This document shows, one piece after another, positions 1 through 27,650 of a stretch of 64,000 bases of DNA. Each line of letters starts with the position of its first letter. Position 1 is the stretch's first letter. A program made the translations under genes and the position numbers. The notes below the pieces were generated by a model. It was not told the origin of the DNA, made no database searches, and saw only the letters and a program-made list of their open reading frames with translations. The stretch comes from Cyanidioschyzon merolae (lineage: Eukaryota): the NCBI GenBank assembly GCA_000091205.1, contig AP006492.2; one strand, 5' to 3'.

Positions 1-1432
1 AGTAACCAAAACGATACCGGAGTTGATCTCGAGCACTTCATGAAGCGCACCCCGTGGGCGTTGGGTCCCATCGCACAGGCCTAGGAAAACGGGGACGGAC
101 GAGAGACACGAAGACGAAGACGCCGCGCTGAGCGTGTGGATCCCCCGATGAAGCACACGGTAGCCGTCGCAGTACGTTTCAATCCACAGGTCAGATCCAA
201 CGACCTGAACGAAAAGCAGATGAAGCTGCATACGTTCTTCAGGGCTCCGTACGAGCGCGAGTCGGGCAGCTTGATCGCCAGCGCGCATGCGAACGACTGA
301 AACAGCGGCATCACGGCCAATCTCGACGCTCTGAATACCGCATCGAGCAGCTAATCACGCTTTGATCGCTTCACGCTGACACTTCGTGTACGTCCAAATG
401 GCTCATGTGGACGTCCTTCGGCAGGCCGACACGGAACCGCGTCCGAGTCGCCGAAGTTTTCGGCTTTATGGAGACCCGCAACGGACTTTCGCCAACCCGG
501 TCCATGAGTTGGAAAAAGCAAATCACCGAAAAGCCGTATGCACTGGTGGTAGCCTACGGCAATGCGCGTTCTGTGACGCCTGAAGACAGCGCTCGTTTCC
601 GCTCGACGAGCGCGTGCAACCAGTGCAGACATTGATGCCGCACGATTCCCATCAACGAATTCCGGGCTTCGACGTACGCACATCATGAGCACGGGTGCAC
701 GCTAGATCTGCCTGAGACACAGAGCATGGAACAGAGCCGAATACAATGGATGCTGTATTGTGAACTGAACAAGCGTCAAATGGCGCAGTACCTGGAAAAG
801 GAGACGCATCCTACGATGTGATTCCGCGAAGAGATGATGCGCGCAACCACGAGATGCACCGAAAGCTGAACGCCTCAATCAAGATCCGGAAGCATCTCGT
901 GGTTTCGGAGGATTCAGCGGTATTCTGTGGAGCGACACTTGTGAGCGCATCGTTTTGTATACAGTATATGCATTGTGTTGGCACGTCGAAGACTTGCAGG
1001 GAGAAAAATCAGCCGTCATCCGGGCTGGCATTGGACGCTTGCCTGGAGCAGCGCGCTTCTATAATGGGGTCCAGCAAGCAGGCAAGCATGAATCGCCATA
1101 TATACATTGGGAATGGTCTCCCTGCGTCATTGGTGAACGATAATCGTGTCACGCTATACGCTTTCGCGGAATATCTCGTGGTGCACACCCTGCTTCGCCA
1201 ACAGCTGGCTCCATCTCGCTGCTGACTCGTGCGACCTTCGCGCCACCCCAATGCGATCTCCAGCTGCACAAACACATACACATACACACACTGGAACACC
1301 CGTTCCACACAGGTGTGCTGTCCGCAGACGCCGGCTGTCCGACTGCTACCGATGTGCTCGTATTCACCACCGTTCGTGCGATCTGCAGCGGACGGGGCGC
1401 TATATCATCGGGCATCGTCGATGAAATGTAGT

Positions 1433-1454
1433 GGCGGGCGGAAAACCGCCCGCC
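1433..1454. other. perfect 9-bp stem / 4-nt loop hairpin (GGCGGGCGG-AAAA-CCGCCCGCC) abutting the stop codon and 3' boundary of Fanzor copy A1
   Basis: Read directly from the sequence. It sits at the edge where identity with copy A2 ends, and the equivalent position in copy A2 (about 22350-22370) is degraded. It is a candidate terminal structure of an omega-RNA or 3' UTR. Confidence 0.6.
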
Positions 1455-1919
1455 CTACACGAAATGTCTCCCACTGACGTGCAGACGCCTCCCAGTCTTT
1501 TTGGACCGGCCGCCTACTAAGGGTTTCAACTTTTTCTCATATAATTCCACCTTGAGAGGTTCTTCCGCGAAATTCTCTCTGGTCAACTCTGGAGGTCTTC
1601 TTTCTATCACCGCGCACCTCCTTATATTGATAGCGGCGTTAAAGTCTTGGTTCACAAACTTCATACGTTTCTTGCTATTGATTGTACTTCCGGATGCACC
1701 TAGTCCAGAAACTTTCGCTTTCCTTCCCATGTGCTCTTCTGTTAGCGCTCCGTACTTTTGTATATCTTCAGGGCTCCTCTGGCACTTTTTCATCCCCATC
1801 CTCTGAAGTGTACATCCCAACTCATCGTGTATAGGCGATTTCCGGAACTCATCGATCGGTATCGTAACGAAACGCCTGCGCACTCCTTGTATGTTCTTGT
1901 TGACGGCGCTGGTTGACAC
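1455..1919 (-). CDS. Fanzor/TnpB-like nuclease, C-terminal segment (RuvC-II, Zn-finger-like region, RuvC-III); frame-disconnected from upstream segment
   Basis: The ORF-track protein contains TIPIDEF (RuvC-II Glu), a Cys/His-containing spacer and VNQDFNAAINIRRCAV (RuvC-III Asp, a TnpB/Cas12 hallmark). The listed start codon is GTG. The frame is open upstream to about 1967 but differs from the 1985-3052 frame. Confidence 0.8.
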   Translation of the reverse strand: MSTSAVNKNIQGVRRRFVTIPIDEFRKSPIHDELGCTLQRMGMKKCQRSPEDIQKYGALTEEHMGRKAKVSGLGASGSTINSKKRMKFVNQDFNAAINIRRCAVIERRPPELTRENFAEEPLKVELYEKKLKPLVGGRSKKTGRRLHVSGRHFV

Positions 1920-1984
1920 GCTTTCTGGGTCATCCAGTGCCCTGATCCATACGCTACTAAAAGCCTCTTACTCTTATCTTCCTT

Positions 1985-3052
1985 TCAGGCGCTCAACTGA
2001 TTGAAGAAATCCGCGGTCGCCCGCTGCTTCCCACAGTATAGATTAACGCGCAGACGAGCCCACCGGGGCTTGGCGTACTCTTTCCACGGCGCTTCCCAGT
2101 CAGCAACACGGACTTTCGTGAATTTCAGAAAAGTTCGAAAGTCCGCTCCTCGGCTCGTCACCTCGCTCATAGCTTCCAGGTGCTCGTTCGCTCCTGCATT
2201 CCATGTCTCAACTTTCTTCCTTGCATTCTTTATGCCCGATTCTCGACAGTATCTTGCTCTCGAGAGCTTGAAAAGACGCATGTCTTTCTGACGCAAGTCA
2301 CCGTCACTGCCATCTTCTGCACGCTTCGGTGCTGCGACGGCTATATTCATCGTGTTTCCGGGGTCCACGCCGACGACAAAGTCACTCTCATGCACCTCCT
2401 GCGTCGCAGGATCCGCCTCTTTCTTTTCTTCGTGCTTCGTCAGGGGCGAAGCCGAAGGCACGATAGGACGATCCGCCTTCAACCGCCGACAGTGTGCACA
2501 CATGGACACTCCATCGGTTTCGATCGTGCCCGTGAATACCCTCTGCTTGCTCACTTTGCGACGTTTGAAATAGAAGATATTCTTCCAGTACGTCTCCCGG
2601 CTTTCACCGGTGAACTCCGTCTTCCTTCCATCGAACTGCGGACAGGTCTCCTCCATGACGCCGTAGAGGACTCTGGAGTCGATAATCACATAGTGCGACT
2701 TGATGCTGCACAGCGGAGCGACGTAGAAGCGCTTACCCAGAAGCGCGGCCTTCTGTCGCTCCGGCTCTTCATTTGCTTTCTGACTCGGCTCCATCTCCGC
2801 CTTGCGCTCGAGTTTTCGGTTCAGGAATCCGAAATAGCGCACAATGGGGCGATAACATCTTTCTTCATCTCTTTTCATATCTGGTACCTTTTCCGCTCGA
2901 TTCGCCAGCGCCAAGACTGCACGGTGCTCTTGAATAGCCGCACGGATTACAGAAGCTTCACTCAGGCACCGGCGTGACGTCTTCATGTCGACAAATTCGA
3001 TCTCCTGTACGTTCTGGCGATCGTTCGTGATGCCGTCGATGATGGCCCACAT
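1985..3052 (-). CDS. Fanzor/TnpB-like nuclease, central segment (WED/REC-like N-region and RuvC-I)
   Basis: 355-aa ORF with [19 protein letters not shown] (RuvC-I Asp) about 140 aa before its end, plus an upstream CxxC. It is 98% identical at the protein level to 22895-23962. Its frame is open upstream to about 3180 and overlaps the 2983-3252 ORF in the -1 frame. Confidence 0.75.
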
Positions 3053-3252
3053 CGCGCGGCGAGAGAGGCCGGGGGGTCCAGCGCAAACATGGCGCGTATC
3101 ATGAAGCGTTCGAGGTTCACGATCATATCGTTCTTCAGGTGCGTGAGGTGCTTGACTGCCCCGCTGGTGTAAACACGCAAGTCACCCCTGTATCGAGTAA
3201 CGTTGAAGCGGTATTCAGCATCATTTTTCATGCCGGGCATCCACTCGCTCAT
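2983..3252 (-). CDS. putative N-terminal segment of the Fanzor/TnpB-like protein (out of frame with the central segment)
   Basis: 89-aa ORF starting [21 protein letters not shown], reminiscent of the TnpB N-terminal k-a-y-k-f-R-l-Y-P region. It overlaps the next frame across 2986-3180, which contains a C6/G6 homopolymer at about 3071-3076. Adding one nucleotide there would fuse the frames (..[19 protein letters not shown]..). Confidence 0.4.
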   Translation of the reverse strand: MSEWMPGMKNDAEYRFNVTRYRGDLRVYTSGAVKHLTHLKNDMIVNLERFMIRAMFALDPPASLAARCGPSSTASRTIARTYRRSNLST

Positions 3253-3929
3253 TTCGCCGCGACGTTTCCCCTATAGCAAGCATGAGGTGACGAGTAAAGG
3301 TCTTGTAGAAGGCACGTTCCGAAACCTCAGCTGTTTCCAAGTGCGTCACGTCGCGATACATCTCCCTCGTCATATGCATCGGTCCTCAAGAAGCCTTGCA
3401 AACACTCCCGGAGTTCGACTCGGCACGGTTTCTGATGGCATCTCGCAACTTTTCCCCGTGCGGAGCAGTAGTATGCTTAAGAAGACAGGCTCTCACCACC
3501 ATCTCGTCGTATCGCCGTCTTTCTTGCAGCCTTTATTGTCGGACCTCCCGCTTTTGCTCCTTCGTCCTCTCCTGTTCTTCTGAACTCGGCACCGTTTTTT
3601 GTTTTTTCTCTGCCGGCTGTCGACGCTGTGCCCCCTGGATCCTCCATTTCCTTTTCCATGACTTTCCTTTTTTACATGTTTGGAAATGAGACTTCTTTGA
3701 ACGCTTCTGCTACAAACCGCGAAAAATCACTTGAAAACAGTTACTTGAGGGTTAGTACACAACTGAGGTGAAGGACTGTACTCTGCTACGACTACAACGC
3801 AAATACGACCTGTACGGTAGAGTAACAAGAAAACGATTAGGAAAGATCGCGTTTCCCTTCAACGGCGAGATGCGCGTCGTATCTGCTGGCTACCAGGCAT
3901 GGAGGTGGGCGTATCGAGCGCATTATTTA

Positions 3930-4570
3930 GAACAAAGAACAGAGACTAACAACTTACTAGCAACGATATAACGATTTCTATCCCCATCTACGATGAACAT
4001 TAAAAGGGGAAAACTTTCCGTATCTTCGGAAGTTTAACTTATGGGTGGAGGGTCCCGCAAGCCGGACTAGTCGTCAAGGCTAGTGCTTCGTGCTCTCCCT
4101 CGTGGAAGGCGCCATGATGAGAGCTGCACAGGTCGTCCAAAACGCAGTTTTTTCTGGGACTCGGAGAATGTATGCTGCGTCTGGGCACCGCCCCAGGTAG
4201 TAGTGGGCTTCTAGTATATCGCTTCGCGCTCTCGCAGGCAGAAGGCCTGCCTGCCCAGTTTCCAGGCTCCCGGAATGATAATCAGCCCTGAATCCGGGTC
4301 AAATGTACCATTCTTCGAGACGACGCCTTCACTGGTATGGCAAATCCGTTCTGTCGCTGTGCAGCATGCGCTCCAGCGGTTTAGGCGCTACGACGTGTGC
4401 TCAGTGTAGACACTCGGCGCACGATAGAGCATATGAAACGACCAGTATATCCGCGAGTAAGCTTGAGAAATGGAACTTGAAGATAGGTGCAGCATGATGG
4501 ACGCTTTCGCGAATGCCATCATCCATCCACTCCGAAATCTCGGATTTGTGGTCAATGTACACGCGTACCA
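3930..4570. repeat. paralogous segment X1 (~650 bp), adjacent to the 5' side of Fanzor copy A1
   Basis: About 70-75% similar to 27000-27650 (for example ..aaaggggaaaactttccgtatcttcggaagttt..gcaagccggactagtc.. versus ..aaaggggaaagatttctgtagtttcgaaagttt..gcgagccggacgagtc..). Minus-strand ORFs 4401-4697 and 27414-27668 share ..FKFH..LL.D.LVV.Y..SCA... Confidence 0.5.
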
Positions 4571-5289
4571 TCGATAAAAAATCAGCGGCATCCTCCGCTG
4601 GACACCGGCGGGAGCTGCCACGTGGCAGCACAAACGTGCGATTGCAAAGCATCCGTGTACCCGTGTCGCCGTCCGCGGCAGCGCCTCGGAGCAGCAATCA
4701 CCGCCACGAGCACACGGCGGTGGCTGCACGTGTGCGTGCGCTTCTATAACGCCCGATAGAGCATTCGAATTCGGCGTTCTACCGTAGTGCGCAGCACCGA
4801 GCGCTAGACACGTTACGGAGCTTTCTTCACTTTTGTTTCATCATGGTTTGGGACTATAAGCTGCTCGACTCTGTATCCGTCAGTCCACTTGACTGCATCT
4901 ACCAGTTTTTCTGCCTTCCCTGTGCGTGGGGTGAGTTGTACGCGGTCGACCAAGGAGAGCGCTGTCTTCAGCCGCAGTGCCTCATAGGCACCCTCATCGC
5001 CTTCGTGCCGGTTTTAAACTGCTTTTGCTTTGCAAACCGGCGCGCTGAGCAGATGGAACGTATGGGAATGTACGTTGACTATCTTGAGGTATGCGCTGTT
5101 ATTTGTGGTTTTCCCAGCGCTTGCTGCTTTGTGCACCAGGAGCGACTGCAGTACAATGGAACAGGTGCAGAGCCGAAGCTCATTCTCATGGAGTAATTTC
5201 GGTTGACGACATATGACAGGATTTCTGGTCTGTATCTCCACGATCTAGGTAACTGAAGTTTATATCTGCTCTGCAGGATCTACTTGAAC

Positions 5290-6957
5290 TCAGCGACCTG
5301 GCCTTGGTGGTGGAGTCGTACTTTGGAACCTGAGGGCGCGATAATTCTCTATCTCAGCCAGAGGTCGAAAAGGCTTAGCTAGGAAGCGATCATGATCGCG
5401 TTTCTTATGAGGGAACGTAAATAAGTTTTCTGCCATCAGCGCGGCAAGCGTTACCAGCAGTCCAGCTACAAAAATTGCCAGAAAAACCAAGATCCAGAAA
5501 CGATTGTGGCGCGCGGTACCAGCGATAAGCGGTACAACCTCCTTTCCCAGCGCGATGATGAGCTCCAGCATAATCAGAACAATGATAATGACCTCCAGCC
5601 GGCTGCTATGCCTGAACTGGAGCTCGCTACTCAACAGGTTCAACAGTTCCCGGACAACGTCAACACGTTTGTTCAACATCTCAACTCGTTGCGGTAGTTC
5701 TAAATAGCGCTCAACGAGACGATACAGAGAATCGTATTCGGGATGGTTCCAGATAATGTCAGGCGGATCCAGAACATCCGCAAAGAGGTACAGAATGTGC
5801 CTGTCCATCACCAGACTCCCCAGCGTCATGGCGATATCCCGGCGACTCCGCGAGACAATTGCACCTGTGGCCGCCAGCTCCGCAGCCAGATCACGCGTCG
5901 CCTCGACGCTTCGCTGAACACTCTCTTCAAAGCTGGACAGCTTGATAGATTGTGCCATGCCATGCGATGCAGCAAGCTTCGCTAGAACTGAAGCATCCGG
6001 CATCATCAGAATGTCTGAGACGAAACGCGGTTGATCCCCGCTTATTTCGTATGCAAAGTCATCAGACTCGGGTTCGTCAAGGCCGTCGCGTTCACAAAAT
6101 GATCGAATGATGGTCAGTAGATGGCGCTCCTCTTCGGGATCGAGATGCCACATGACCACAACACCGTAGCGAAAGATGAAGACATCGCCGGGCTCTTCAG
6201 CGGCGTCGTCTTCACTGACCATAGCTGCCCGCCGGGGTCGAGCGTGAATCACCAACGAGTCGTCGACCAAACCAGCCTGATTATTGGACCAGACTCTCAT
6301 TCGTCGAAGAGCTCGCACCATGTCATACTCCTTGGCGGTGCAGTACGTTGTAATGCGATATCGCCTGGCGTGATCGGTGCCCTCGATATCCCTCTGTAGT
6401 CTGGCGGTGCGTGCACGGGCGCGCACTTTTCGGCGGAGCGTTGCGGCTGCAACCTCTGGGGGCGCCGCTGCAGCTGCTGCTAACAGCTCGGCCTCCTCGG
6501 CGTTCGCCTCAAAATCGTCACCTTCTTCGGGGTCGATCGCGGTCGACGAAGACTCGGTCGGGGGATTCGACCCCGTGATCTGCAGCTCGCGGCCTTTGTT
6601 CCCCAGCAATTCGCTGTTTTCACAGGAACGTAAAATCGTCGTGTTGCCTTTTTCAAAGCTGAACGGCTTGCGTCGTACTTCGGGGAGCCAGCGGCTGCTC
6701 TGCGTTCCGCTGATACGGCCGCCTGCCAGCACGTGCCTAACGTGCTCTGTTCTCAGCCTTGCTTGCTTTCTTGGAAGCGCGGGCGGAGACAGCAGCACGT
6801 GCCTCAGTTGCAAGGATTCACTGCGCAATATCCGTAACTGGGCGCCCGCACGAAACCGGTACCCCGCAAGGTCCGCGGTGTGCTGCGTACTGCAGCACCA
6901 CGCACCGCCGGCAAAAGCCAACCGTCCACCAAAGCCGGTCTTTTGCAATTCTCGCAT
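5290..6957 (-). CDS. DUF155 / RMD1-family (RMND1-like) protein with C-terminal transmembrane segment
   Basis: 555-aa ORF with a conserved-looking core (..YRITTYCTAKEYDMVRAL.., ..FIFRYGVVVMWHL..), a coiled-coil region and a hydrophobic C-terminus (..VIIIVLIMLELIIALG.., ..ILVFLAIFVAGLLV..), matching the Rmd1/RMND1 architecture. The N-terminus is Arg-rich and looks like a presequence. Confidence 0.55.
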   Translation of the reverse strand: MRELQKTGFGGRLAFAGGAWCCSTQHTADLAGYRFRAGAQLRILRSESLQLRHVLLSPPALPRKQARLRTEHVRHVLAGGRISGTQSSRWLPEVRRKPFSFEKGNTTILRSCENSELLGNKGRELQITGSNPPTESSSTAIDPEEGDDFEANAEEAELLAAAAAAPPEVAAATLRRKVRARARTARLQRDIEGTDHARRYRITTYCTAKEYDMVRALRRMRVWSNNQAGLVDDSLVIHARPRRAAMVSEDDAAEEPGDVFIFRYGVVVMWHLDPEEERHLLTIIRSFCERDGLDEPESDDFAYEISGDQPRFVSDILMMPDASVLAKLAASHGMAQSIKLSSFEESVQRSVEATRDLAAELAATGAIVSRSRRDIAMTLGSLVMDRHILYLFADVLDPPDIIWNHPEYDSLYRLVERYLELPQRVEMLNKRVDVVRELLNLLSSELQFRHSSRLEVIIIVLIMLELIIALGKEVVPLIAGTARHNRFWILVFLAIFVAGLLVTLAALMAENLFTFPHKKRDHDRFLAKPFRPLAEIENYRALRFQSTTPPPRPGR

Positions 6958-8190
6958 ATTTCAAATAGGATTGCTTCTTTTACGGTCTGTTATAGTCCAG
7001 ACATGAGGAATCGCGACGGAGTGCCTCGACAGCTCGTGACGGGTACACGCTGCCTCCAACAAGGCGAATGCCTTCGTTCTGGTGCCCCGGCCACTGGGCG
7101 ATGGTGGCGTTTGCGTGAGGGCTATCGTCTGCGGCCGTGGCACCGAGTCCGCCGCTTTTGGTAAAGCGCCTGACTCTATGAGTGTCACTTTTGCTCGTCT
7201 CAGTGCGAAGCTGGGACCCCAAAGCAATCGGACTGCAATCGTTAACGACTTTGTTCTGCTTTAGACCGGGGAGCGTCGCTTTACTGTACGCACCGGCATC
7301 CGAGAGAGCCCAGCGGACGCTGGGCGGCTACGTGGTCCACCGAGCCAGGTGCACCCGAAACCAGCAGAACGTGTTTCGCAACCTGACAAACACGCCGCAC
7401 TGCGCCCCCAGCTTTGTTCTGGGAGCAGTTTGCACGCCGTGGTTACGAAGCCCTCTAACGCTGGTGTCGAGCTAGGTGTGGCGTCGGTCACATCGCTTGC
7501 ACTGCCTCACCGTTCCAGTAGAGCGTGCTCCTTCGAGAAGTCTGCCAGCGGAGCGTACCCTCGAACACGCTTTGGAGTGATACGGCTGTGTTTGCCGCTG
7601 CCGCTGCGCTCATGACTCCGAATTATCTGTGCGCACGGCATGGAAAAGATGCAGATGACTGAGTGTCAGTAGGACGCGTAAATGTGTGTTGTGGCTTTTG
7701 GAACTGGGAGGAGTAGTGCGCACTGCTGAACGCTTCCCCGGATGGGGGCAGCAGTCGCGCAAGCATGTCTCCCTGATTAGTGCAAAGGATGCAGCAGTTC
7801 TTGGGAAAGTTGCGTACATCGCAAACACAAATGTAAGCGCAAGTTGCGTCGCCGTTGATGAGTGCAACCGCATCGGGCGCTGACCCGTCTCCTACTGACG
7901 TCGGCGAGGTTCCCGTTGGAGTTATAGATGGCCAGTGCGCAGTTCCCATGCTGGATTTGGCCTGCGAAATCCATGGGAATAACGACAAGCGCTTTACAAC
8001 CGGTGTCAGCGTAGAATCGAATGCTGAACTGCTGGCTCTGTCCGCGCCTCGCGATTATTTTCCGAAATATTTGAAGGTGTACAGCCTCTGCATTGGACAT
8101 GCAGCAATCAGGGCCCATGGATGCTGACGTGGATTAGGATTCGCGGTCATCGTTTCACAGCGGCTCCTTCAACACTTTGCTGCTGGAATT

Positions 8191-8362
8191 CGATACGCGG
8201 TACCGGAATCAAGATGATTACCGATATGGTCCAACAAGGGCGTCCCTGGAATCAACGATCCCGTTACTTAATGGATACGCGGTACCGGAATCAAGATGAT
8301 TATCGATATGGTCCAACAAGGGCGTCCCTGAAAGCATCGATCCCGTTACTTAATGGATACGC
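8191..8362. repeat. 82-bp tandem duplication (about 2.1 units)
   Basis: gatacgcggtaccggaatcaagatgatta[c/t]cgatatggtccaacaagggcgtccctg..cgatcccgttacttaatg is repeated head-to-tail with 3-4 mismatches. Confidence 0.85.
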
Positions 8363-17089: not shown

Positions 17090-18440
17090 CGTTGGCGTAC
17101 CCCAGAGGACGTCGGCTCGAGATGGTAAACTGATACCCAGGCGCAGATGCCTCTCAGCCTTTTTTGACCGTCAGACTGCCATCAATTTCAGTTTATTCAG
17201 GCACGCTTCGAGACTGTGAGGCTGCACGAAGCAAGAGGATCGCGCTAGCCCCGAGGGTCTCGTCTCCAGCACCGCACATCATTTGATATTGATAGCGGCG
17301 TTGAAGACTCGGTTCACGAACTCCATGCATGTATTGCCTCTGGTGGTGCTCGCCAATGGAAGGAGTCCTCAAACTAGTGCCCTCAGTGCCATTTGCTGCT
17401 CTGTCAGCTCTCCGTGCTTTTCTATCGTCGAAATGCTCCGCTGCATTCTCCCCATCCCGATCTTTGAATGGTACATCCCAGCTCATCCCTCAGACTTTTT
17501 TGAAAATGAACGCAATTCTTCATGCCATTAGGTGAGGATCTTCCCTAATGGAGAAGGATTCGTTCAAGGAAGATGTAATGTGCCACAGTGTGTCACTGTG
17601 TGCTGGGCGATTCAGCGATTCGGCCAGTGGAGCGGTCGATAATTTCCATGATAGAAAACACTTCTTCAGTGGGGTACAACAACGGAACGTACTACGGAAT
17701 GAAAAGCAGCTCTACCCAGATAGAATCGGCAAATGCTCGATCCCTGGGGAATATTGAAATACCATGTTGTTCAATAGAAGGACGTCTCAATACGTTAGGG
17801 AAACCCTTCAATAATTCGATAAAGTGGTTGGTGCTGTTGTATGCGCCTTTATTACGAGCGATAGCGAGGCCATCAAATGAATGCCCTGCAGCTAGAATAG
17901 ATGATGATGTCCTCGTCTTCTTCGATTTCGATCGTACATACATTGGGCCTCCTTTCCGAGAATACCAATATATGCTCCCACCGTTTCATCCGAAGCAAGC
18001 CTCATCGACTGAGGAAACAAACCAAAGTGCCTGTGCTTCATACCGATCGCGACGTCCCAGGAAAGCTGTGGTAGCGATTTCCGTAGACGATGGCCGTGCG
18101 TGAAACTGGATTTTTTGCCTGTTTCCAAGCTTTTACAGGACCAGATGAACAAGATGTCGAGCAACTGAGACGCCTGTGGCAAATGATACCGACAATTTCT
18201 CTTTCCATACGGTGATCAACGGGTCGCATTCTTCCATTGTCCATAAGCAGTCTTCGAGAATATCGGTTGTTTGCCGCAGAGTGCATATGCTTCTTTGTTT
18301 CAGTGTTCCTCAACCATCGGAGTACTTTGGTATAACTGACTTGAAGGAGAAACACAGTACTCGTTGCACTGTTCAATAAAGAATATATCCCACCGGCAAT
18401 TCGTCTACGATCTATACGGTACATTGCATCGTGATGTCGA
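17090..18440 (-). mobile_element. degenerate chimeric element B1: Fanzor 3' module (about 17090-17490) fused to an unrelated ~0.95-kb segment Y
   Basis: The minus strand at about 17283-17325 encodes MEFVNRVFNAAINI, a RuvC-III motif with the Asp replaced by Val. The plus-strand mirror ORF 17283-17531 parallels the mirror ORF of copy A1. About 17090-18440 is roughly 75% identical to 49855-51210. Confidence 0.55.
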
Positions 18441-19307
18441 TCTCCTGCTACACACCCCAGCAGGTCTCCAGCAAATTGGGTTGGAAGACTAGACGAAGTG
18501 TACGCGGTGCTTTCATTGAGATTTTGCATGTTGCATCTGCGAGACAGGTATTCACTGGAGAGCGCAGTGCAACGAAACCTTGGGTTTCGCCGAAACTCCA
18601 GCGAAGACCGGGTACCATGTTTCGAGAGGACGCCTGGGAGTCCTGTGGTCGCGTGAGCAGGAACAGCTCGCCGGTCTGCTGTTGCTTTCGCAAACGTTTG
18701 GAAAACGGAATCGCGGGTGATCGGAAAGCCATGATTTTGGGCGAAGCAGGTTTTACGAGTTCAGTGCGTCCAGTAATCCAGCCACGGCGGTTGTGAGGAC
18801 CTGCCGCAACCCGCTCTGTTGTGGCAGCTATGACATAGACTTGGTGCCCACACTGTTCAGCAGCGTCTGGTGCATGATCCTGGCCAAAGCTCGCACGTGT
18901 CAGCGTTTCCGCCGAGGGCCATAGACGCTCGTGTCGCCAGCGTTTTCAGAGACAGTGTTCCGAGCGTTCGCGTGGCCTTACCTCGCAACCGAAAGGAAGC
19001 GTTTGTCTCCTAGAGTTCGGAATGCTGTTGTCTAAGGTGCGGCGTTTCAGAGTCAGAACACGGACGCGACGCCGCGGATGTTTCGCTGTCCACTCGGCCG
19101 GCTAGGGCGTTCGACGACGGCTCGGTTGCACGCTTGTTCTGAAGCTCTCTGTTTTTCAGCTGCGAGCTTCTTGGAGTTAGGTATCGCCTGCGAGAAGTGG
19201 TGCTTGCCTGAGGGTTCTTGGATCAGATAGATCGGGGGACGCATGCCGGTGCACTCGATGCAGACGGTGGTATTGAGGCGTTGAGCGCGAGAACGCCCAT
19301 TTTCCCT

Positions 19308-20408
19308 TTAAAGAAGAGATGCTAACGTCGCTCCCATTTGCTGTTCCGAGCAGCTCGTGATCACCGTTTTCGAAAAAATGGAATCGAAGCTTGCAGGAGT
19401 GTCCTCAACATCGCTTGCGGATGCGGGCGGCAACAGGGAATCCGACGTAGAATGCGCTCCTGTGCCTCGTGAGACGGGAGCGGGTTCATCCCGCTCGATT
19501 TGAAGGGGCTCGTCGTACAGTACCGCTTGGATAGCCTTGATGAGCGGTAGCTCTGGCTCCGGATGCGTCTGGCAGAGCATCTCGATATCACGTAGTTTTT
19601 CAAAATAGTAGGTTCGTTCTCTCTCGAGATTATCGATGGCAAGCTGCATTTCAGTAATTTTCTGAATCAGCTTGGACTCCTGTTCCCGCGCCAGGCCGTC
19701 TGCAGCATTAACGGCCGGCGGCTCCGTCTTGGTGCCTGGCGATGCAGTGCGCGGCTGAGCCGGGCTCGAGCAAGTCGTGGATTCCTGTGCGGGCGTGCCG
19801 CCACGGGGATGCGTCGTAGCGGAAGCCGCTCGATAGGCCTCCTCCCGCTGCGCCCGAATGTTGCTGTTAACCGCACCCGTGCATCGAAGCGTTCGCGCAG
19901 CGGGCGCATGAAGGCCAGCGGCAGTTTTTGGGCCCGATACAGGACGTCGCTTCATCGCAGCACCTACGGTTTCCCTGCTGACACCGGGCTTTTGTTCGTT
20001 GTACTTGCGGACAGCGGCTTCGCGTCGCTCCACGGCGTTGTAAGGCTGGCCGGCGTAGAAGCGATCGAACACTGCTTTGACCCACTGGAGAAACTCCAGG
20101 TTATCCTGCGCTCTTGCCTTAATGAGTCGCTCGACTTCGATGTGTTTTTCGATACCAACTTTATCCAAAACCGCTTGAAGCACCTTATAGTTCTGTACGT
20201 ACTCGTACTCATGCCGAGCGCTAAAGTTCACTTTATGCAGCGGTACCTTCCCGGGGAAGAGAGCGTCAAAAACCTGACAGTGCGCTGCACCATCTGCGAC
20301 TTGTTCAACTTTCGTGTAACTCAGTTTGAGAAAGTCGTTCAGCCACGATAAGAGTTCCCCCCGAGAAACAAAAAAAGCCCCAGACATGATGCCCACTGCC
20401 TCTGCCAT
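19308..20408 (-). CDS. EB1 / MAPRE-family microtubule plus-end-binding protein
   Basis: N-terminal calponin-homology domain (..ELLSWLNDFLKLSYTKVEQVADGAAHCQVFDALFPGKVPLHKVNF..YEYVQNYKVLQ..) and C-terminal EB1 coiled-coil motif (..QLAIDNLERERTYYFEKLRDIE..). The gene is a single exon. Confidence 0.85.
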   Translation of the reverse strand: MAEAVGIMSGAFFVSRGELLSWLNDFLKLSYTKVEQVADGAAHCQVFDALFPGKVPLHKVNFSARHEYEYVQNYKVLQAVLDKVGIEKHIEVERLIKARAQDNLEFLQWVKAVFDRFYAGQPYNAVERREAAVRKYNEQKPGVSRETVGAAMKRRPVSGPKTAAGLHAPAARTLRCTGAVNSNIRAQREEAYRAASATTHPRGGTPAQESTTCSSPAQPRTASPGTKTEPPAVNAADGLAREQESKLIQKITEMQLAIDNLERERTYYFEKLRDIEMLCQTHPEPELPLIKAIQAVLYDEPLQIERDEPAPVSRGTGAHSTSDSLLPPASASDVEDTPASFDSIFSKTVITSCSEQQMGATLASLL

Positions 20409-20793
20409 GTTCGTTCAGTCGCTTGAAAAGCCGAAACCTCACGTTGATCTTGCCAAACAATCAGATGCGCTTCCGCTGGGACTGACAGAGATTTGACGCA
20501 ACTGCACCGCAATGACGCTACGAGAGCACCAGCGACAGCAGCAACAGTGTTCCACAACGATACGATTATATAGCGTAATCCGCTATGTTTGCGTGATGAT
20601 TGCGTCCTGGTAGCGGGCGCTTCTAGCGATAGCGTTGCGCGAATCCAGTTTGAAAATTAAGATCCAAGATGCCGCGCCAGCTCGATAACTTCATTCCCGT
20701 GCGCGATCGATGATGCGATGGTAACGGCTGGTTAAACCGGTCGTCAGTGCACCTTGGTACTAACTCTGGGGACGAGTCTTGTCCAGAACTGCG

Positions 20794-22137
20794 ATGCCAC
20801 GTCGGTGTCGCCACACAACTGCGAAGGACAGGCGGGCAGGTGAGAAATGCTGCTGTCGGTGTGGTGCGCTCTGTGAACCTGGGAGCGCGGCAGAAACGGT
20901 ATCCGTTCGGGACGCACCGTGGCAGCATGTCGACGCCAGCGCGGCTGCTGTGTGGACGAGCGCAGTGTACGACGCTGTGTCGCGCCGGTTTCACGACGAC
21001 GACGACAGCGACAACGAACTATCGAGCCCCCTGCTGGCGCTCATGCAACTCGGCTCGGACATGGACTCGGACTTTGAGGCCGACGGTCTACCCAGCGGAG
21101 CGTGGGCGCTCACGCCGCTCGACTTGGACGCGGACTCGGACTCGGACTCGGACTCGCTGCAAGAAAAGACGCGCTCAACTCACACGGGTGAGTCTCGCAC
21201 TGTAACGGCGGAGCGTGGAGCACCTTTGGATAAGAGTGGTCGCTCAGAAACCAGCCCAAGCGAGTCATTGTCTGAGGACTGGCACCGGAAGGAGTTTGAC
21301 ACTGAAAATCTGCAGAGTCTCGCGGAAACAAGCTGGTATCGTAAAACTGGCAACGGCTTACACGCGAAACTGAGCTGGTTGGAGCGGGAGGCGGAATTCA
21401 ACCAGTTGCTGATCGGTCACGGACGCCGAAAGCGGCGGCAAAGACGGAAAAGTGCAGTCAAAGAGAAACGTTTCCTAGAAACAAAAATGAAGCTGGAGGC
21501 CACCATGGATGAGGCGATCCGTACGATGATGCGTTTCTGTGAGGATACCGGACCAAATGCGGTGGACTACGTAGACATGCCAGCCATATGTAGCACGGGC
21601 CGCGAATTCCTTCACCGGCTGGCGCAGGCTTGCCGAACGCGCGTCGTATCGAAGCCTAATGCACATGTAGTAGCGGTCGCTCGAACGCGCAATACTCGAT
21701 GGTGCGGGCTTGAAGAGGCGCAACGGCTGGCCTCGGAATGTTCCGAGAAGGCGCTGCTCAAGCAAAGCGGCCTCTATAGGACACGTCGTGAAACGCGTAC
21801 GAACGACGCCTCGCGGTCGAACGCTTCGGCGACGTCGGCAAAGCGCTCCCCTGAGGACACGGAGAAGCAACAGAAACAGTTCACCAAGGGTACGGTTCAC
21901 ACCGAGCGGGGACGTGCCCAGCTGCAGCAGACCGCGCTTGCCGTTCAGCCAGTTGCAGCCGAGAATCGCGGCCACGAATTGATGCGGCGGCTCGGGTGGC
22001 AACCTGGGCAGGCACTTGGTGCACAAACCGGTGGCGAGCGAGCACTTTTGGAACCGCTCAAAGCGACGTTGCGGCCACCTCGCCGGGGTCTTGGCGCTGC
22101 ACACGCAACTGCGTCTAGTGGAACACCTCCGAAATAG
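20794..22137 (+). CDS. G-patch domain-containing protein
   Basis: C-terminal G-patch (..AENRGHELMRRLGWQPGQALGAQTGGERALLEPLKATLRPPRRGLG..). An acidic (GACTCG)n tract encodes DSDSDSDS. The ORF-track start at 20779 is TTG; the first ATG is at 20794. The CDS ends about 200 bp before Fanzor copy A2. Confidence 0.55.
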   Translation: MPRRCRHTTAKDRRAGEKCCCRCGALCEPGSAAETVSVRDAPWQHVDASAAAVWTSAVYDAVSRRFHDDDDSDNELSSPLLALMQLGSDMDSDFEADGLPSGAWALTPLDLDADSDSDSDSLQEKTRSTHTGESRTVTAERGAPLDKSGRSETSPSESLSEDWHRKEFDTENLQSLAETSWYRKTGNGLHAKLSWLEREAEFNQLLIGHGRRKRRQRRKSAVKEKRFLETKMKLEATMDEAIRTMMRFCEDTGPNAVDYVDMPAICSTGREFLHRLAQACRTRVVSKPNAHVVAVARTRNTRWCGLEEAQRLASECSEKALLKQSGLYRTRRETRTNDASRSNASATSAKRSPEDTEKQQKQFTKGTVHTERGRAQLQQTALAVQPVAAENRGHELMRRLGWQPGQALGAQTGGERALLEPLKATLRPPRRGLGAAHATASSGTPPK

Positions 22138-22223
22138 CAGGAGCAGGCTGACGAACCATGTGAAACGAACGCGCAAAGCGTTCAGCTTTGGAAGAATGCG
22201 GAGTGATGCATCCGTGTCTGCTG

Positions 22224-22829
22224 TCACCGCCTCGTCTGGAGATGGAGGATGCACTTTAGTATCGAGAATGATGCCGTGCACGCGACCTCGGGTGACACTC
22301 GCGAACGCCGTTCAAAAGTCGAAAGCAGTCGCCAGCGGTTTACAGTAGTGGCGGCGAACGCGCCCAAGACAAAACTTCTCCAACTGACGTGCAGACGCCT
22401 CCCAGCCTTTTTGGACCGGCCGCCTACTAAGGGTTTCAACTTTTTCTCATATAATTCCACCTTGAGAGGTTCTTCCGCGAAATTCTCTCTGGTCAACTCT
22501 GGAGGTCTTCTTTCTATCACCGCGCACCTCCTTACATTGATAGCGGCGTTAAAGTCTTGGTTCACAAACTTCATACGTTTCTTGCTATTGATTGTACTTC
22601 CGGATGCACCTAGTCCAGAAACTTTCGCTTTCCTTCCCATGTGCTCTTCTGTTAGCGCTCCGTACTTTTGTATATCTTCAGGGCTCCTCGGGCACTTTTC
22701 CATCTCCACCCTCTGAAGTGTACATCCCAACTCATCGTGTATAGGCGATTTCCGGAACTCATCGATCGGTATCGTAACGAAACGCCTGCGCACTCCTTGT
22801 ATGTTCTTGTTGACGGCGCTGGTTGACAC
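22224..22829 (-). CDS. Fanzor/TnpB-like nuclease C-terminal segment (RuvC-II, RuvC-III), copy A2
   Basis: Carries the same TIPIDEF and VNQDFNAAINVRR motifs. Its C-terminus reads through into flanking DNA because the stop codon present in copy A1 is absent here. Confidence 0.75.
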   Translation of the reverse strand: MSTSAVNKNIQGVRRRFVTIPIDEFRKSPIHDELGCTLQRVEMEKCPRSPEDIQKYGALTEEHMGRKAKVSGLGASGSTINSKKRMKFVNQDFNAAINVRRCAVIERRPPELTRENFAEEPLKVELYEKKLKPLVGGRSKKAGRRLHVSWRSFVLGAFAATTVNRWRLLSTFERRSRVSPEVACTASFSILKCILHLQTRR

Positions 22830-22894
22830 GCTTTCTGGGTCATCCAGTGCCCTGATCCATACGCTACTAAAAGCCTCTTACTCTTATCTTCCTT

Positions 22895-23962
22895 TCAGGC
22901 GCTCAACTGATTGAAGAAATCCGCGGTCGCCCGCTGCTTCCCACAGTATAGATTAACGCGCAGACGAGCCCACCGGGGCTTGGCGTACTCTTTCCACGGC
23001 GCTTCCCAGTCAGCAACACGGACTTTCGTGAATTTCAGAAAAGTTCGAAAGTCCGCTCCTCGGCTCGTCACCTCGCTCATAGCTTCCAGGTGCTCGTTCG
23101 CTCCTGCATTCCATGTCTCAACTTTCTTCCTTGCATTCATTATGCCCGATTCTCGACAGTATCTTGCTCTCGAGAGCTTGAAAAGACGCATGTCTTTCTG
23201 ACGCAAGTCACCGTCACTGCCATCTTCTGCACGCTTCGGTGCTGCGACGGCTATATTCATCGTGTTTCCGGGGTCCACGCCAACGACAAAGTCACTCTCA
23301 TGCACGTTCTGTGTGGCAGGATCCGCCTCCTTCTCATCTTCATGCTTCGTCACGGGCGAAGCCGAAGGCACGATAGGACGATCCGCCTTCAACCGCCGAC
23401 AGTGTGCACACATGGACACTCCATCGGTTTCGATCGTGCCCGTGAATACCCTCTGCTTGCTCACTTTGCGACGTTTGAAATAGAAGATATTCTTCCAGTA
23501 CGTCTCCCGGCTTTCACCGGTGAACTCCGTCTTCCTTCCATCGAACTGCGGACAGGTCTCCTCCATGACGCCGTAGAGGACTCTGGAGTCGATAATCACA
23601 TAGTGCGACTTGATGCTGCACAGCGGAGCGACGTAGAAGCGCTTACCCAGAAGCGCGGCCTTCTGTCGCTCCGGCTCTTCATTTGCTTTCTGACTCGGCT
23701 CCATCTCCGCCTTGCGCTCGAGTTTTCGGTTCAGGAATCCGAAATAGCGCACAATGGGGCGATAACATCTTTCTTCATCTCTTTTCATATCTGGTACCTT
23801 TTCCGCTCGATTCGCCAGCGCCAAGACTGCACGGTGCTCTTGAATAGCCGCGCGGATTACAGAAGCTTCATTCAGGCACCGGCGTGACGTCTTCTTGTCG
23901 ACAAATTCGATCTCCTGTACGTTCTGGCGATCGTTCGTGATGCCGTCGATGATGGCCCACAT
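22895..23962 (-). CDS. Fanzor/TnpB-like nuclease central segment (RuvC-I), copy A2
   Basis: 355 aa, [17 protein letters not shown], near-identical to 1985-3052. Confidence 0.75.
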
Positions 23963-24162
23963 CGCGCGGCGAGAGAGGCCGGGGGGTCCAGCGCAAACAT
24001 GGCGCGTATCATGAAGCGTTCGAGGTTCACGATCATATCGTTCTTCAGGTGCGTGAGGTGCTTGACTGCCCCGCTGGTGTAAACACGCAAGTCACCCCTG
24101 TATCGAGTAACGTTGAAGCGGTATGCAGCATCATTTTTCATGCCGGGCATCCACTCGCTCAT
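23872..24162 (-). CDS. putative N-terminal segment of Fanzor/TnpB-like protein, copy A2 (frameshifted relative to central segment)
   Basis: Near-identical to the 2983-3252 ORF and overlaps the next frame in the same way. Confidence 0.4.
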
Positions 24163-24946
24163 TTCGCCGCGACGTTTCCCCTATAGCAAGCATGAGGTGA
24201 CGAGTAAAGGTCTTGTAGAAGGCACGTTCCGAAACCTCAGCTGTTTCCAAGTGCGTCACGTCGCGATACATCTCCCTCGTCATATGCATCGGTCCTCAAG
24301 AAGCCTTGCAAACACTCCCGGAGTTCGACTCGGCACGGTTTCTGATGGCATCTCGCAACTTTTCCCCGTGCGGAGCAGTAGTATGCTTAAGAAGACAGGC
24401 TCTCACCACCATCTCGTCGTATCGCCGTCTTTCTTGCAGCCTTTATTGTCGGACCTCCCGCTTTTGCTCCTTCGTCCTCTCCTGTTCTTCTGAACTCGGC
24501 ACCGTTTTTTGTTTTTTCTCTGCCGGCTGTCGACGCTGTGCCCCCAGGATCCTCCATTTCCTTTTCCATGACTTTCCTTTTTTACATATTTGGAAATGAG
24601 ACTTCTTTGACCGCTTCTGCTACAAACCGCGAAAAATCACTTGAAAACAGTTACTTGAGGGTTAGTACACAACTGAGGTGAAGGACTGTACTCTGCTACG
24701 ACTGCAACGCAAATACGACCTGTACGGTAGAGCAACAAGAAAACGATTAGGAAAGATCGCGTTTCCCTTCAACGGCGAGATGCGCGTCCCGTCTCATGCC
24801 CGCCAGGTATCCCGGGTGCGCCTAGAGTGCGCGCCGCGTGCGCCACCGCAAGCGTTACAAATCGAAACACGCGCCGCAGCGCCAACGAACGCGCCATGCT
24901 TCATGCTTAGCGTTTTCGGGGGCTCACGTACTAGACGCCGCACAGT

Positions 24947-26236
24947 GTGATACCCGAGGCGCTCCGCTGCTGGTGGCGACTGTTTTTGGACAATAAACCG
25001 CACCGGGTCATGGATGCTGAACCGCAGCTCACCGCTGGGTCAGCAGAAACAGCATCAGCCTGCACTGCGTGCAACTCGTATGAAGCACAAATAAGAGAGA
25101 AGCGGCTTCGGAATCAGCGCCTTCTCGAGTCGCTCGGGATCGCGCAAAGTCGCGCTGTACTCCTCGGCAAGGCTGCGGGGAAGCGCAGCGAATCACTGAC
25201 CATTGGTGAGGACGCTGATCGCCCACAGAAACGAGGGCGGCGCGCTCGAAGCATCGCCGCCAACGCTGTGGCGCTACAGCTTTCCGTTCAGACGCGCAGT
25301 CTGCGCAGACGCTGCTCGCAAACGGAAACGAACGCCGCGGTGGATCCACTCACAACAGTCTCAGTGAATGCTTCGTCCGAGCGCGATGCCGATTCGAATC
25401 TGCTTCATGGTTTCCTCTCCATGCGGGCAAGCGAGAAATCGCCTCCATCTCTAGGAAGGTATGCATTTTGGGAGCCAATATATGACCCTAGAAATGATGA
25501 CGCGAGCTCCATAGCGGAAACCGAAAACCACTCCGCTGTGAAGGATCACTCGGGTCGACTGTTCGTTTTATCGAAGAAGCGAGTCGTCTCTGTGCGGCCC
25601 AATGAAGCTGGCAAGACGGCGCCGAAACAGACTCCTGCCGATCTGCGTGCTGAAAAGCGCCGCGCGTTCGAAAGTCGCTTCTGCGCGGATCTACCCCGCG
25701 AGCCGGCACCGTACGCCCTGCGTCGACTGCTGAACCATCATAGCATTGCTGCCTTCTGTTGCGGTACCGTCGCCGTGCCGTTCACACTTCGCTCCATTGG
25801 TGTTACCGTTCGGAGCTTAGGTCAGCTCGTGATTCGTCCGGATGATCCATTGGTGGAGCGAAAGTGGTTCTCGTCGCGCCTGGCTATGTACGCACATCCG
25901 TTTCCAACAGGTTATCATGCGACGAAAACGCACTGGAACCGGCTCTGGCATATGCACATCGAATCCGACCCGAATGGAGGCGGTCCCTTTTTCATCGTCA
26001 AAAGTGATGACGGTCGCGAGACCTACCGACGCCATACGCCATCGCATGCCTGGATGGACGCATGCCTCCATAGTCATGCGCCTGGGACGCGAATCAGCGG
26101 ACCCTTGTTTTTCGGATTCAGTGACCCGTGGCTGCAAACCGTAATCCAAACTCAATTAGTAGCTGATGCAGAGAAATCCGGGATGTTTCGGGATTCATCG
26201 ACCGCTTCTGAATGCATACTCGGCATGAAACGCTGA
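24947..26236 (+). CDS. hypothetical protein (429 aa) immediately flanking Fanzor copy A2
   Basis: Long ORF with no recognised domain. The start codon is uncertain; an internal ATG (MDAEPQL..) lies at about 25010. Confidence 0.35.
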   Translation: MIPEALRCWWRLFLDNKPHRVMDAEPQLTAGSAETASACTACNSYEAQIREKRLRNQRLLESLGIAQSRAVLLGKAAGKRSESLTIGEDADRPQKRGRRARSIAANAVALQLSVQTRSLRRRCSQTETNAAVDPLTTVSVNASSERDADSNLLHGFLSMRASEKSPPSLGRYAFWEPIYDPRNDDASSIAETENHSAVKDHSGRLFVLSKKRVVSVRPNEAGKTAPKQTPADLRAEKRRAFESRFCADLPREPAPYALRRLLNHHSIAAFCCGTVAVPFTLRSIGVTVRSLGQLVIRPDDPLVERKWFSSRLAMYAHPFPTGYHATKTHWNRLWHMHIESDPNGGGPFFIVKSDDGRETYRRHTPSHAWMDACLHSHAPGTRISGPLFFGFSDPWLQTVIQTQLVADAEKSGMFRDSSTASECILGMKR

Positions 26237-26999: not shown

Positions 27000-27650
27000 T
27001 CGTAATCTATCGAAAGAACAGAAATCAAAAACTGATTAGCAACAAGATAAGAAATGCTTTCCACCTCTACGATAACCGTTGAAAGGGGAAAGATTTCTGT
27101 AGTTTCGAAAGTTTGGCTTCTAGGCGCAAGGTCATGCGAGCCGGACGAGTCTGCGGGGCTAGCGTTTCATGCTTCCCCCAGCGGCACTCGCTGAGGCGAC
27201 ATCAGATCAGCACATCCGCAACGCCGTTCATTCTGGCATCACAAGTCGTTGGAATGCGTCTGGGCGTCGCCCTGGTCGCAGTGGCTTCCTAGCATTCCGC
27301 TTAGTGTCGCCACAGGCAGTAAGTCGATCTGCGGAGCTTGCAAGCCCCCATAATGATTATGTTACTCGGACCCCGTGTCGAATGAACCACGTCTCGAGTC
27401 GACGCCCTCAGTGTCATGGCAAAGCCGTTCTGTCTCCGTGCTGCATCCGCACGATCAGTATTGAGGCGCTCCTACGGGTGCTCATGGCAAGTTTGGCGCA
27501 CGATGGAACGTACAGAACGACCAGTACATCCGAGAGCAGGTCATGGAACTTGAAGGTGCTGTTCAGCGTGATGGACGCTTTCCCGAATGTCAATTTCCAT
27601 CCCGCAATCTGGGATCCATGGTATATGTACTGAACCTGTAAAACCAAAAA
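27000..27650. repeat. paralogous segment X2, directly upstream of the diverged 1.28-kb repeat partial copy
   Basis: See X1 for the similarity evidence. Confidence 0.5.

Follow-up and report, generated by a model that had tools for sequence, protein, structure and literature searches.

Both full-length copies of a Fanzor-like coding sequence in the window, the 64,000-nt stretch of Cyanidioschyzon merolae DNA analyzed here, are spread over three reading frames that break at the same points. This raises the question of whether such a gene could still be expressed, through short introns or recoding, or whether it was already dead when it was copied. The reading proposed here, held at a probability of roughly 85%, is that the two copies, A1 and A2, are dead members of a Fanzor1 repeat family, decayed by seven lesions and homogenised most likely by ectopic gene conversion. 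According to this model, the ancestral gene would have been a single intron-less ORF of ~720–750 codons, starting from a conserved ATG (3659 in A1) and encoding a TnpB-type RuvC nuclease, and in this lineage it has been hit by three nonsense codons and by four small indels that shift the frame. Neither copy can yield a functional Fanzor protein, the sequence offering no hint of splicing or recoding. Once the gene was broken, one sequence would have replaced the other by ectopic conversion between older, diverged insertions lying 20.9 kb apart in direct orientation, so that all lesions became common to A1 and A2. The exchange is apparently ongoing, as suggested by mosaic and concerted variants at the orthologous loci of environmental strains.

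The host is C. merolae 10D, as three proteins encoded in the window are identical to its entries BAM80277, BAM80282 and BAM80295 on an 839,707-bp chromosome. The Fanzor1-encoding repeat family of this alga was first described by Nozaki in 2007, as 253 interspersed repeats whose ORFs are truncated (PMC1955436), and was named CMe-1A by Bao and Jurka in 2013; its consensus spans ~3 kb, its 5' ~635 bp correspond to a separate repeat, TE-N2_CMe, and it is without terminal inverted repeats (PMC3627910). A1 and A2 are members of CMe-1A: they have a nuclear location in the same host genome, a CMe-1 Fanzor1-type coding region, and many diverged and truncated relatives, most copies having broken ORFs. 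A sequence search at the element ends found neither terminal inverted repeats nor target-site duplications. Homology to paralogs (72–79% DNA identity in blastn of A1 against these loci) covers ~3.1 kb at the A1 locus, including a 5' module of ~650 bp (651 bp, 3879–4529) that is common to paralog L006, and its size fits the ~3-kb consensus with its 635-bp module. The split frame, a case of pseudogene decay in a family already on record since 2007 and 2013, is an ordinary and known finding. The flanking genes of the paralogs cluster with BAM82337/82338 and BAM80061, which assigns these paralogs to genomes of the C. merolae type and to chromosomes other than that of the window. A closely related intact master copy may exist in the 10D genome. 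Within the window there are at least seven Fanzor-like fragments, many diverged and truncated copies being scattered through it, and a solo copy of the 5' module, 68% identical, lies at 27013–27630. The one respect in which the pair stands apart is its identity of 98.7%, whereas CMe-1A members are typically ~80% identical to the consensus; nothing essential differs otherwise, and local gene conversion is the likely cause of this excess.

Table 1. Coordinates of the two copies, their reading frames, lesions and catalytic codons in the window.
Feature	Position	Strand	Remarks
Copy A1	1451-3878	minus	2428 nt holding the entire decayed Fanzor1 coding region; window-versus-itself blastn and three-way alignment
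Copy A2	22361-24788	minus	A1 block at offset +20910; all seven lesions at matching positions
Family homology at A1 locus	1428-4529	minus	~3.1 kb, Fanzor part plus 5' module; blastn of A1 against L005/L006/L007/L009
A1 ORFs	2983-3252, 1985-3052, 1455-1919, 3477-3659	minus	three frames
A2 ORFs	22895-23962, 22224-22829		
Conserved family ATG	3657-3659	minus	A1 frame 2, not the frame of the N-terminal coding homology that follows
Lesion 0	3601-3610	minus	+1 nt in the AGAGAAAAAAC stretch near 3609 versus L007; frame 2 to 1; base position approximate (A-rich region, variable among paralogs)
Lesion 1	3533-3535	minus	in-frame TAA; CGA (Arg) in paralogs
Lesion 2	3386-3388	minus	in-frame TGA; TCA (Ser) in paralogs
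Lesion 3	3222/3223	minus	+1 nt, GAAAAATGATGC versus GAAAAAC-ATCC; frame 1 to 0
Lesion 4	3071-3076	minus	C6 run, +2 nt; C4 in L004, 4 nt in all paralogs; frame 0 to 1
Lesion 5	1985-1987	minus	in-frame TGA; Leu (TTG/CTG/CTC) in paralogs; TAA in environmental orthologue L011
Lesion 6	1876/1877	minus	-1 nt, GCA-GGCGT versus GCA[A/C/T]GGCGT; frame 1 to 2
A2 lesion examples	C6 23981-23986; TGA 22895-22897	minus	
TAG closing last A1 coding segment	1455-1457	minus	TTG in A2, whose frame extends to 22224
3' edge of high-identity block	1451-1472	minus	6 A1/A2 differences in 17 nt; putative conversion-tract end
RuvC-I catalytic Asp codon (VGVDPG)	2363-2365	minus	aligns with invariant D484 of alignment A3
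RuvC-II catalytic Glu codon (IDEF)	1848-1850	minus	aligns with invariant E656 of A3
RuvC-III catalytic Asp codon (NQDFNAAINI)	1644-1646	minus	aligns with invariant D725 of A3

The label "Fanzor-like" given to these ORFs in the initial annotation is correct, as a profile of 24 homologues has only two matches, the Fanzor1 structures PDB 9cf0 (E=6.4e-21) and 8gkh (E=1.2e-17), and six family members match Pfam Cas12f1-like_TNB. The homology becomes visible only through this profile of collected relatives; the individual ORFs of the window gave no useful Pfam or PDB match, and exact look-up of the 355-aa ORF returned no called gene. Among 5.8 billion proteins, a set from which unannotated transposon ORFs are possibly absent, the truncated P0001 was the only one more than 70% identical. 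The Fanzor1 nucleases of Spizellomyces punctatus (SpuFz1, 8gkh) and Parasitella parasitica (9cf0), which are homologous by profile search, have in common with the copies the GTIETDGV region, the RuvC-I DPG, the RuvC-II DEFRT and the RuvC-III RD.NAA.N motifs, although in the algal clade no CxxC zinc-ribbon pattern is evident between RuvC-II and RuvC-III. Unlike these two nucleases, A1 and A2 are unable to encode the protein. The split RuvC domain with its D-E-D triad is present only in a frame-corrected conceptual translation, and neither copy has an ORF for the full-length protein: relative to the paralogs, three stops lie in the frame and four indels shift it. A1 and A2 are Fanzor1 pseudogenes rather than functional members.

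The lesions were called by aligning A1, A2 and the near-identical copy L004 with four paralogous loci, and each site proved to be a point change or a 1–2-nt indel. The initial annotation had rightly seen a broken frame, with four A1 ORFs over three frames, a C6 run and an overlap of frames 0 and 1 at ~2986–3181, all of which are present, but the map was incomplete: paralog alignment yields seven lesions rather than two, and the four upstream ones (lesions 0–3) had been missed. The supposed 15-nt frame gap between the RuvC-I and RuvC-II segments is also wrong in detail. It is only mechanical, as frame 2 opens after the TAA at 1968–1970, while the real breaks there are lesions 5 and 6. Same-frame coding homology persists for 36 codons past the TGA until the 1-nt deletion, and in tblastn the alignment changes frame at 1877, the real entry to the RuvC-II/III frame. 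A one-nucleotide change in the C6 run would fuse the two frames, as was claimed, if one C were added, but by removal two C are required. At the 5' end, every paralog retains the ATG together with its context, and the 136-aa ORF that starts from it in L007 is in frame with the rest. The 752-aa single ORF P0003 is uninterrupted across lesions 1–6. The paralogs thus read uninterrupted through each lesion site, the outcome that the initial annotation had set in advance as meaning that the two copies are simply decayed. Of the six mapped lesions, L004 lacks only the C6 run, having C4 instead; this, together with the 4 nt found in all paralogs, indicates that the ancestral state was 4 nt and that C6 is recent. 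In the order of lesions inferred from these alignments, the C6 insertion would be the youngest.

It had been argued that expression of the split gene could depend on short introns or on recoding. Splicing of the segments by short spliceosomal introns is favored by nothing more than the split frames themselves and a candidate with GT..AG ends at 3271–3496. This stretch aligns as coding sequence to residues of the N-terminal region of P0003, and homology to the uninterrupted paralogous ORFs is continuous per nucleotide at every junction. Since the junctions differ by 1–2 nt or by a point substitution, there is no room for an intron. In C. merolae, moreover, introns are found in only 0.5% of genes (PMC1955436), so that this explanation has almost nothing left of its probability.

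Recoding would combine a -1 frameshift on C CCC CCG at 3071–3077, read-through at the TGA of lesion 5 and a further shift near 1877. In formal terms GAC CCC CCG has the X XXY YYZ layout of a slippery site and lies in the required phase, the frame moves by -1 both at the C6 run and at 1877, and the catalytic triad codons are retained. Against this, C6 goes back to a recent insertion of 2 nt rather than to a conserved signal, the paralogs having 4 nt, like L004, and being read through. The folding of the RNA after the run does not surpass that of shuffled sequence, 173 of 200 shuffles being at least as stable (z=+1.19). Bypassing C6 would leave six of the seven events in need of rescue, among them +1-type shifts and three stops. 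The TAA that replaces the TGA in L011 gives no sign of a selected read-through context. TGA is a normal stop and the commonest one in the host, closing 8 of the 17 host ORFs, for which reason a reassignment of this codon was also discarded. With substitutions between A1 and A2 that look neutral as well, recoding is very improbable and is rejected together with introns.

The frameshifts could also be ascribed to sequencing or assembly errors such as a miscalled C6 homopolymer, and two of the indels do lie in or beside homopolymers (the A-rich 3596–3610 and the C6 run). However, the run differs from the in-frame state by 2 nt and not by 1, three lesions are point nonsense codons, and the genome of reference is a finished, "100% complete" one (PMC1955436). 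C6 and the other lesions are also found in two contigs assembled independently from two other metagenomes, L011, which represents the A1 locus (99.3%), and L010, which represents the A2 locus (99.2%), and lesions other than C6 are common to L004. An error of this kind has no more than a negligible chance, and it is rejected too.

The frames as assigned seem to have been under selection in the past, to judge from dN/dS values between A1 and its paralogs of 0.42–0.45 overall and 0.18–0.29 in the post-TGA and C-terminal segments. Between A1 and A2 there are 8 synonymous and 18 non-synonymous changes, with a dN/dS of 0.64 (p=0.21 versus neutral) that, on 26 changes, fits neutrality and weak constraint alike when taken alone. 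These substitutions look neutral, and constraint on the two copies appears to be relaxed now.

How the two copies came to be so similar is a separate matter. A2 carries every break of A1, as had been stated: blastn and alignment give 98.68% identity over the 2428 nt, with zero indels and 32 substitutions, none of which falls at a lesion site. At 98.7% identity, shared lesions are expected by common descent and are no statistical surprise. The window contains a second 98.7% pair (30734–31996 / 55192–56457); one segmental duplication for both pairs was considered and discarded, because their offsets differ (20,910 versus 24,458 nt).

Within the block, A1 and A2 are 98–100% identical, and identity falls to 41–44% just outside it. 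Family homology nevertheless continues past both ends: the 5' continuation of A1 is 67–71% identical to L005/L006, reaching 4529 with L006, and the 3' continuation of A2 is 69–81% identical to paralogs. The 5' continuation of A2 and the 3' continuation of A1 are weakly family-like (39–56%), so each end of the gene-conversion argument depends on a single copy. Differences between A1 and A2 are strongly clustered: of the 32, 10 fall within 48 nt (P ~1e-9) and 6 within 17 nt, and five of the latter, at 1456–1466, are the only locus-specific sites also held in the environmental orthologues. At five sites A1 and A2 of 10D agree while L010 and L011 agree on another base, and L010 joins the 5' side of A1 to the 3' side of A2, in short-read metagenome contigs in which a 2.4-kb repeat is possibly collapsed or chimerically assembled. 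The collapse of identity at both block ends with family homology continuing, together with the concerted environmental variants, favors gene conversion over fresh transposition, and ectopic gene conversion between two old copies is the most likely copying route suggested by the sequences. The same features are known from ectopic (non-allelic) conversion of dispersed repeats and pseudogenes, namely a near-identity tract that ends inside older homologous sequence, patchy differences, and paralogs within a genome that share variants absent from the orthologues of other strains; here the process is suggested by sequence patterns, and the strain comparison passes through possibly chimeric contigs.

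Fanzor is not the transposase, and a broken ORF is no bar to mobility. Thus, a dead 2.43-kb element could have been mobilised in trans, as a non-autonomous transposon, and inserted afresh at the second locus. The sharp block ends at 3878 and ~1451–1472 in both copies agree with such an insertion, as does L004, a third near-identical copy whose contig breaks at the same 5' end, and CMe-1A was held by Bao and Jurka to be non-autonomous and of unknown class (PMC3627910). Yet the family homology past the block (5' of A1, 3' of A2) differs between the copies, which means that neither is a complete transposed copy of the other. The lack of terminal inverted repeats and target-site duplications (this search; PMC3627910) and the mosaic and concerted variants between loci in other strains also speak against fresh insertion, leaving it unlikely. 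The earlier proposal that the disruption is older than the duplication, and that what spread was a pseudogene, with recombination as a possible means, is supported: the gene is dead by its seven lesions, and the block ends point to recombination or gene conversion.

The significance of these results is small and mostly one of housekeeping, in that annotation of the two loci as a Fanzor gene with splicing or recoding is to be avoided. The exact lesion map corrects the earlier frame architecture, with the C-run insertion as its probable youngest member. Beyond that, the copies provide evidence for homogenisation of dispersed Fanzor1 pseudogenes by gene conversion in C. merolae, whose genome is very compact and recombination-proficient, and this matters when the ages of its copies are estimated from pairwise identity.

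Some role for the dead copies can be imagined, although it is improbable: they might supply omega-RNA guides to Fanzor1 from the few intact paralogs, or Fanzor might induce double-strand breaks whose repair, with the sister copy as template, homogenises the pair. In the omega-RNA search, the RNAalifold consensus for the final ~240 nt of six copies had an unfavorable covariation term (+3.06), with only 3 of 58 pairs compensatory; the C-terminal segment shows no drop in synonymous divergence, and Rfam had no match in the window. The guide-supply idea cites the reported transcription of the repeat family and the near-identity of the copies, and the break-repair idea amounts to a homing-like process between paralogs.

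The coding sequence at 1455-3659 (minus strand) lies in pieces over three frames, and the ORFs delimited in the initial annotation (3477-3659, 2983-3252, 1985-3052 and 1455-1919, minus strand) stand as they were given. It belongs to A1 (1451-3878, minus strand), one of two decayed repeat copies. The other, A2 (22361-24788, minus strand), is 98.68% identical over 2428 nt in the window self-comparison, with 32 substitutions and zero indels, so that every break of A1 is also present in A2, as had been proposed. Taken singly, the window ORFs have no match in Pfam or PDB. The frame-stitched conceptual A1 protein retrieves 119 homologues; a profile from 24 of them matches solved Fanzor1 structures only (9cf0, E=6e-21; 8gkh, E=1e-17), and six profile members match the Cas12f1-like TNB domain. 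The label 'Fanzor-like' was therefore correct. Once frame-corrected, the translation can be aligned over its full length with its relatives, and the RuvC D, E and D residues are retained.

Of the host proteins in the window, three match C. merolae 10D BAM80277, BAM80282 and BAM80295 (chromosome of 839,707 bp) with full identity, and further host genes (IspH/LytB, geranylgeranyl reductase, EB1, COG8, CNNM) are consistent with a eukaryote that has a plastid and genes without introns. Earlier publications already cover the element, its identity as Fanzor1 and the truncation of its ORFs. The C. merolae genome harbors 253 interspersed repeats of ~3.2 kb, which together make up ~5% of the genome; in all of them the ORF is truncated and has weak similarity to WSV486, and the repeats were reported to be transcribed (Nozaki et al. 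2007, PMC1955436). This ORF was identified as Fanzor1, family CMe-1A (Bao & Jurka 2013, PMC3627910), with about 150 copies, each ~80% identical to a ~3-kb consensus, without terminal inverted repeats, with a 635-bp 5' module common to TE-N2_CMe, and with few copies remaining intact (PMC3627910). The 64-kb window contains at least seven family remnants, A1 and A2 included, consistent with the reported ~5% share. The five extra fragments have 26-55% protein identity to the paralogs, and several are split over more than one frame.

The comparison DNA, all from metagenome contigs, comprised four paralogous copies (L005, L006, L007, L009) and the near-identical L004. The neighbouring genes of L005 and L009 group with C. 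merolae genes from other chromosomes, which marks these loci as further genomic copies in genomes of C. merolae type. Multiple alignment with the paralogous copies has revealed seven lesions in both A1 and A2, and tblastn with P0003, an intact-ORF paralog protein, places the final frame switch of A1 exactly at 1877. The broken frame initially described is thus real and the C6 run was correctly located, but the map was incomplete. The supposed 15-nt gap separating the RuvC-I segment from RuvC-II does not exist: past the TGA, KEDKSKRLLVAYGSGHWMTQKACQPAPSTRTYKECA follows without a change of frame and can be aligned with the paralogs. The candidate intron 3271-3496 is N-terminal coding sequence.

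Lesions common to A1 and A2 (A1 positions, minus-strand reading frames) and additional Fanzor1-like fragments in the window
Feature	Position	Strand	State	Paralogs	Effect
Lesion 0	~3609	-	+1 nt between conserved ATG (3659) and N-terminal coding homology	L007 in frame from ATG	frame 2 to 1
Lesion 1	3533-3535	-	TAA	CGA (Arg)	in-frame stop
Lesion 2	3386-3388	-	TGA	TCA (Ser)	in-frame stop
Lesion 3	3222/3223	-	+1 nt	without extra base	frame 1 to 0
Lesion 4	3071-3076	-	+2 nt, giving C6	L004 C4, all paralogs 4 nt	frame 0 to 1
Lesion 5	1985-1987	-	TGA	Leu (TTG/CTG/CTC)	in-frame stop
Lesion 6	between 1877 and 1876	-	-1 nt	GCA[N]GG	frame 1 to 2
Fragment	139-791	+	much more decayed than A1/A2		
Fragment	17135-17484	-	much more decayed than A1/A2		
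Fragment	34633-34887	+	much more decayed than A1/A2		
Fragment	44057-45370	+	much more decayed than A1/A2		
Fragment	49940-50231	-	much more decayed than A1/A2		

Sequencing error, suspected at the C6 run, is rejected as the source of the frameshifts. A pattern scan of metagenome contigs, permitting any C-run length, returned two, L011 (99.3% identity with window 1021-8153, covering the A1 locus) and L010 (99.2% identity with 17745-24788, covering the A2 locus). C6 and the other lesions are present in both, the stop at 1985-1987 reading TAA in L011, and five of the six mapped lesions are common to L004 and A1/A2. Therefore, the lesions are real and occur in natural populations.

P0003 is a single 752-codon ORF, open through the sites of lesions 1-6, and L007 provides the in-frame link from the ATG to the remaining coding sequence. 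Near A1 3250, a TAG is present in both L007 and L009, and the ATG of L005 is out of frame. The comparison with other genomic copies suggested in the initial annotation accordingly finds the lesion sites intact in P0003 or L007 and defects that differ per paralog; in the alignment, such separate defects around an intact consensus are the pattern of independent decay. Introns joining the A1 segments are excluded, since the junctions differ from intact copies by just 1-2 nt or one substitution; introns are also present in only 0.5% of C. merolae genes. Recoding, by frameshifting at C6 and stop read-through, does not hold either: although the C CCC CCG run fits a slippery heptamer in phase, the RNA 3' of it folds no better than shuffled controls (z=+1.19), C6 is derived, through a 2-nt insertion that L004, a 97-98% identical copy, lacks, and TGA is the stop of 8/17 long host ORFs. 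What stands of the original interpretation is a pseudogene spread by recombination; introns and recoding fall. In the assigned frames, A1 vs the paralogs gives a dN/dS of 0.42-0.45 for the coding sequence as a whole and of 0.18-0.29 for the post-TGA and RuvC-II/III segments, and the Fanzor1 family was formerly under purifying selection in these frames. The A1/A2 differences (8 synonymous, 18 non-synonymous) are not distinguishable from neutral (p=0.21).

The 98.7% block stops abruptly, and family homology runs past its ends: A1 upstream of 3878 is 67-71% identical to L005/L006 over the next ~50 nt (with L006, on to 4529), and A2 downstream of 22361 is 69-81% identical to the paralogs, whereas A1 and A2 just beyond the block share only 41-44%. 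Neither is therefore a complete transposed copy of the other, which makes a fresh insertion of the dead element at a second locus less favoured. The 32 differences are clustered, with 10 in 48 nt at 2396-2443 (P about 1e-9), 6 in 17 nt at the 3' edge (P about 1e-7) and 4 in 20 nt at 1780-1799, against a background of 0.56%. At five sites A1 and A2 share one base in 10D and L010 and L011 share a different one, as read from metagenome contigs that are possibly collapsed or chimeric across the repeat; only the 3' edge sites (1456-1466) are locus-specific in both strains. The element ends have no terminal inverted repeats. Together, these sequence features favour ectopic gene conversion between two old insertions, which would be still continuing and would have made the lesions common to both. 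L010 (Ga0080006_1103189, 1-7755) connects the A1 5' flank (window 4585-3879) via the repeat with the A2 3' flank (22360-17745). Such an order would be expected from a chimeric assembly at the repeat, or else from the tandem-duplication junction of the 20.9-kb interval via unequal recombination.

Directly before RuvC-I, a ~75-nt unit (2366-2441) encodes an acidic (Q/H)D(N/S)D linker of variable copy number, with one unit in A1/A2, two in L007/L009, three in L006 and four in L005; the densest A1/A2 difference cluster falls inside it. A perfect GC-rich hairpin, GGGCGGGCGG-TTTT-CCGCCCGCC (1430-1452, minus strand), lies at the element 3' end, directly past the TAG at 1455-1457. It is shorter in the paralogs (GGCGCG...CGCC), with a CG/GC swap of one stem pair across copies, and may be a terminator hairpin or a subterminal one of a transposon end. 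The ~650-bp module abutting the A1 5' end (3879-4560) has a 68-69% identical copy at 27013-27630, 2.2 kb beyond the A2 5' end, with an ORF of 429 aa (24947-26236, no Pfam match) in between. The module is joined to the Fanzor part in L006, is absent from that position in L005, L007 and L009, and is probably the TE-N2_CMe repeat of Bao & Jurka.

A second repeat pair, 30734-31996 / 55192-56457 (98.66% over 1266 nt, 3 gaps, offset 24,458 nt), has nearly the same identity as A1/A2 at a different offset. No Pfam match was found for its ORFs 31394-32065 and 55915-56538. Relatives that have diverged further are located at 27934-28175, 8019-8219 (inverted) and 49419-49658, and the pair may be a further family, likewise homogenised locally. 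The ~1.3-kb pair 17155-18450 / 49935-51207 (71% identity), in which a Fanzor 3' fragment is followed by unrelated common sequence, represents a composite repeat or else an older segmental duplication. At 8192-8355, adjoining the inverted relative, an 82-nt unit occurs twice in tandem (95% identical).
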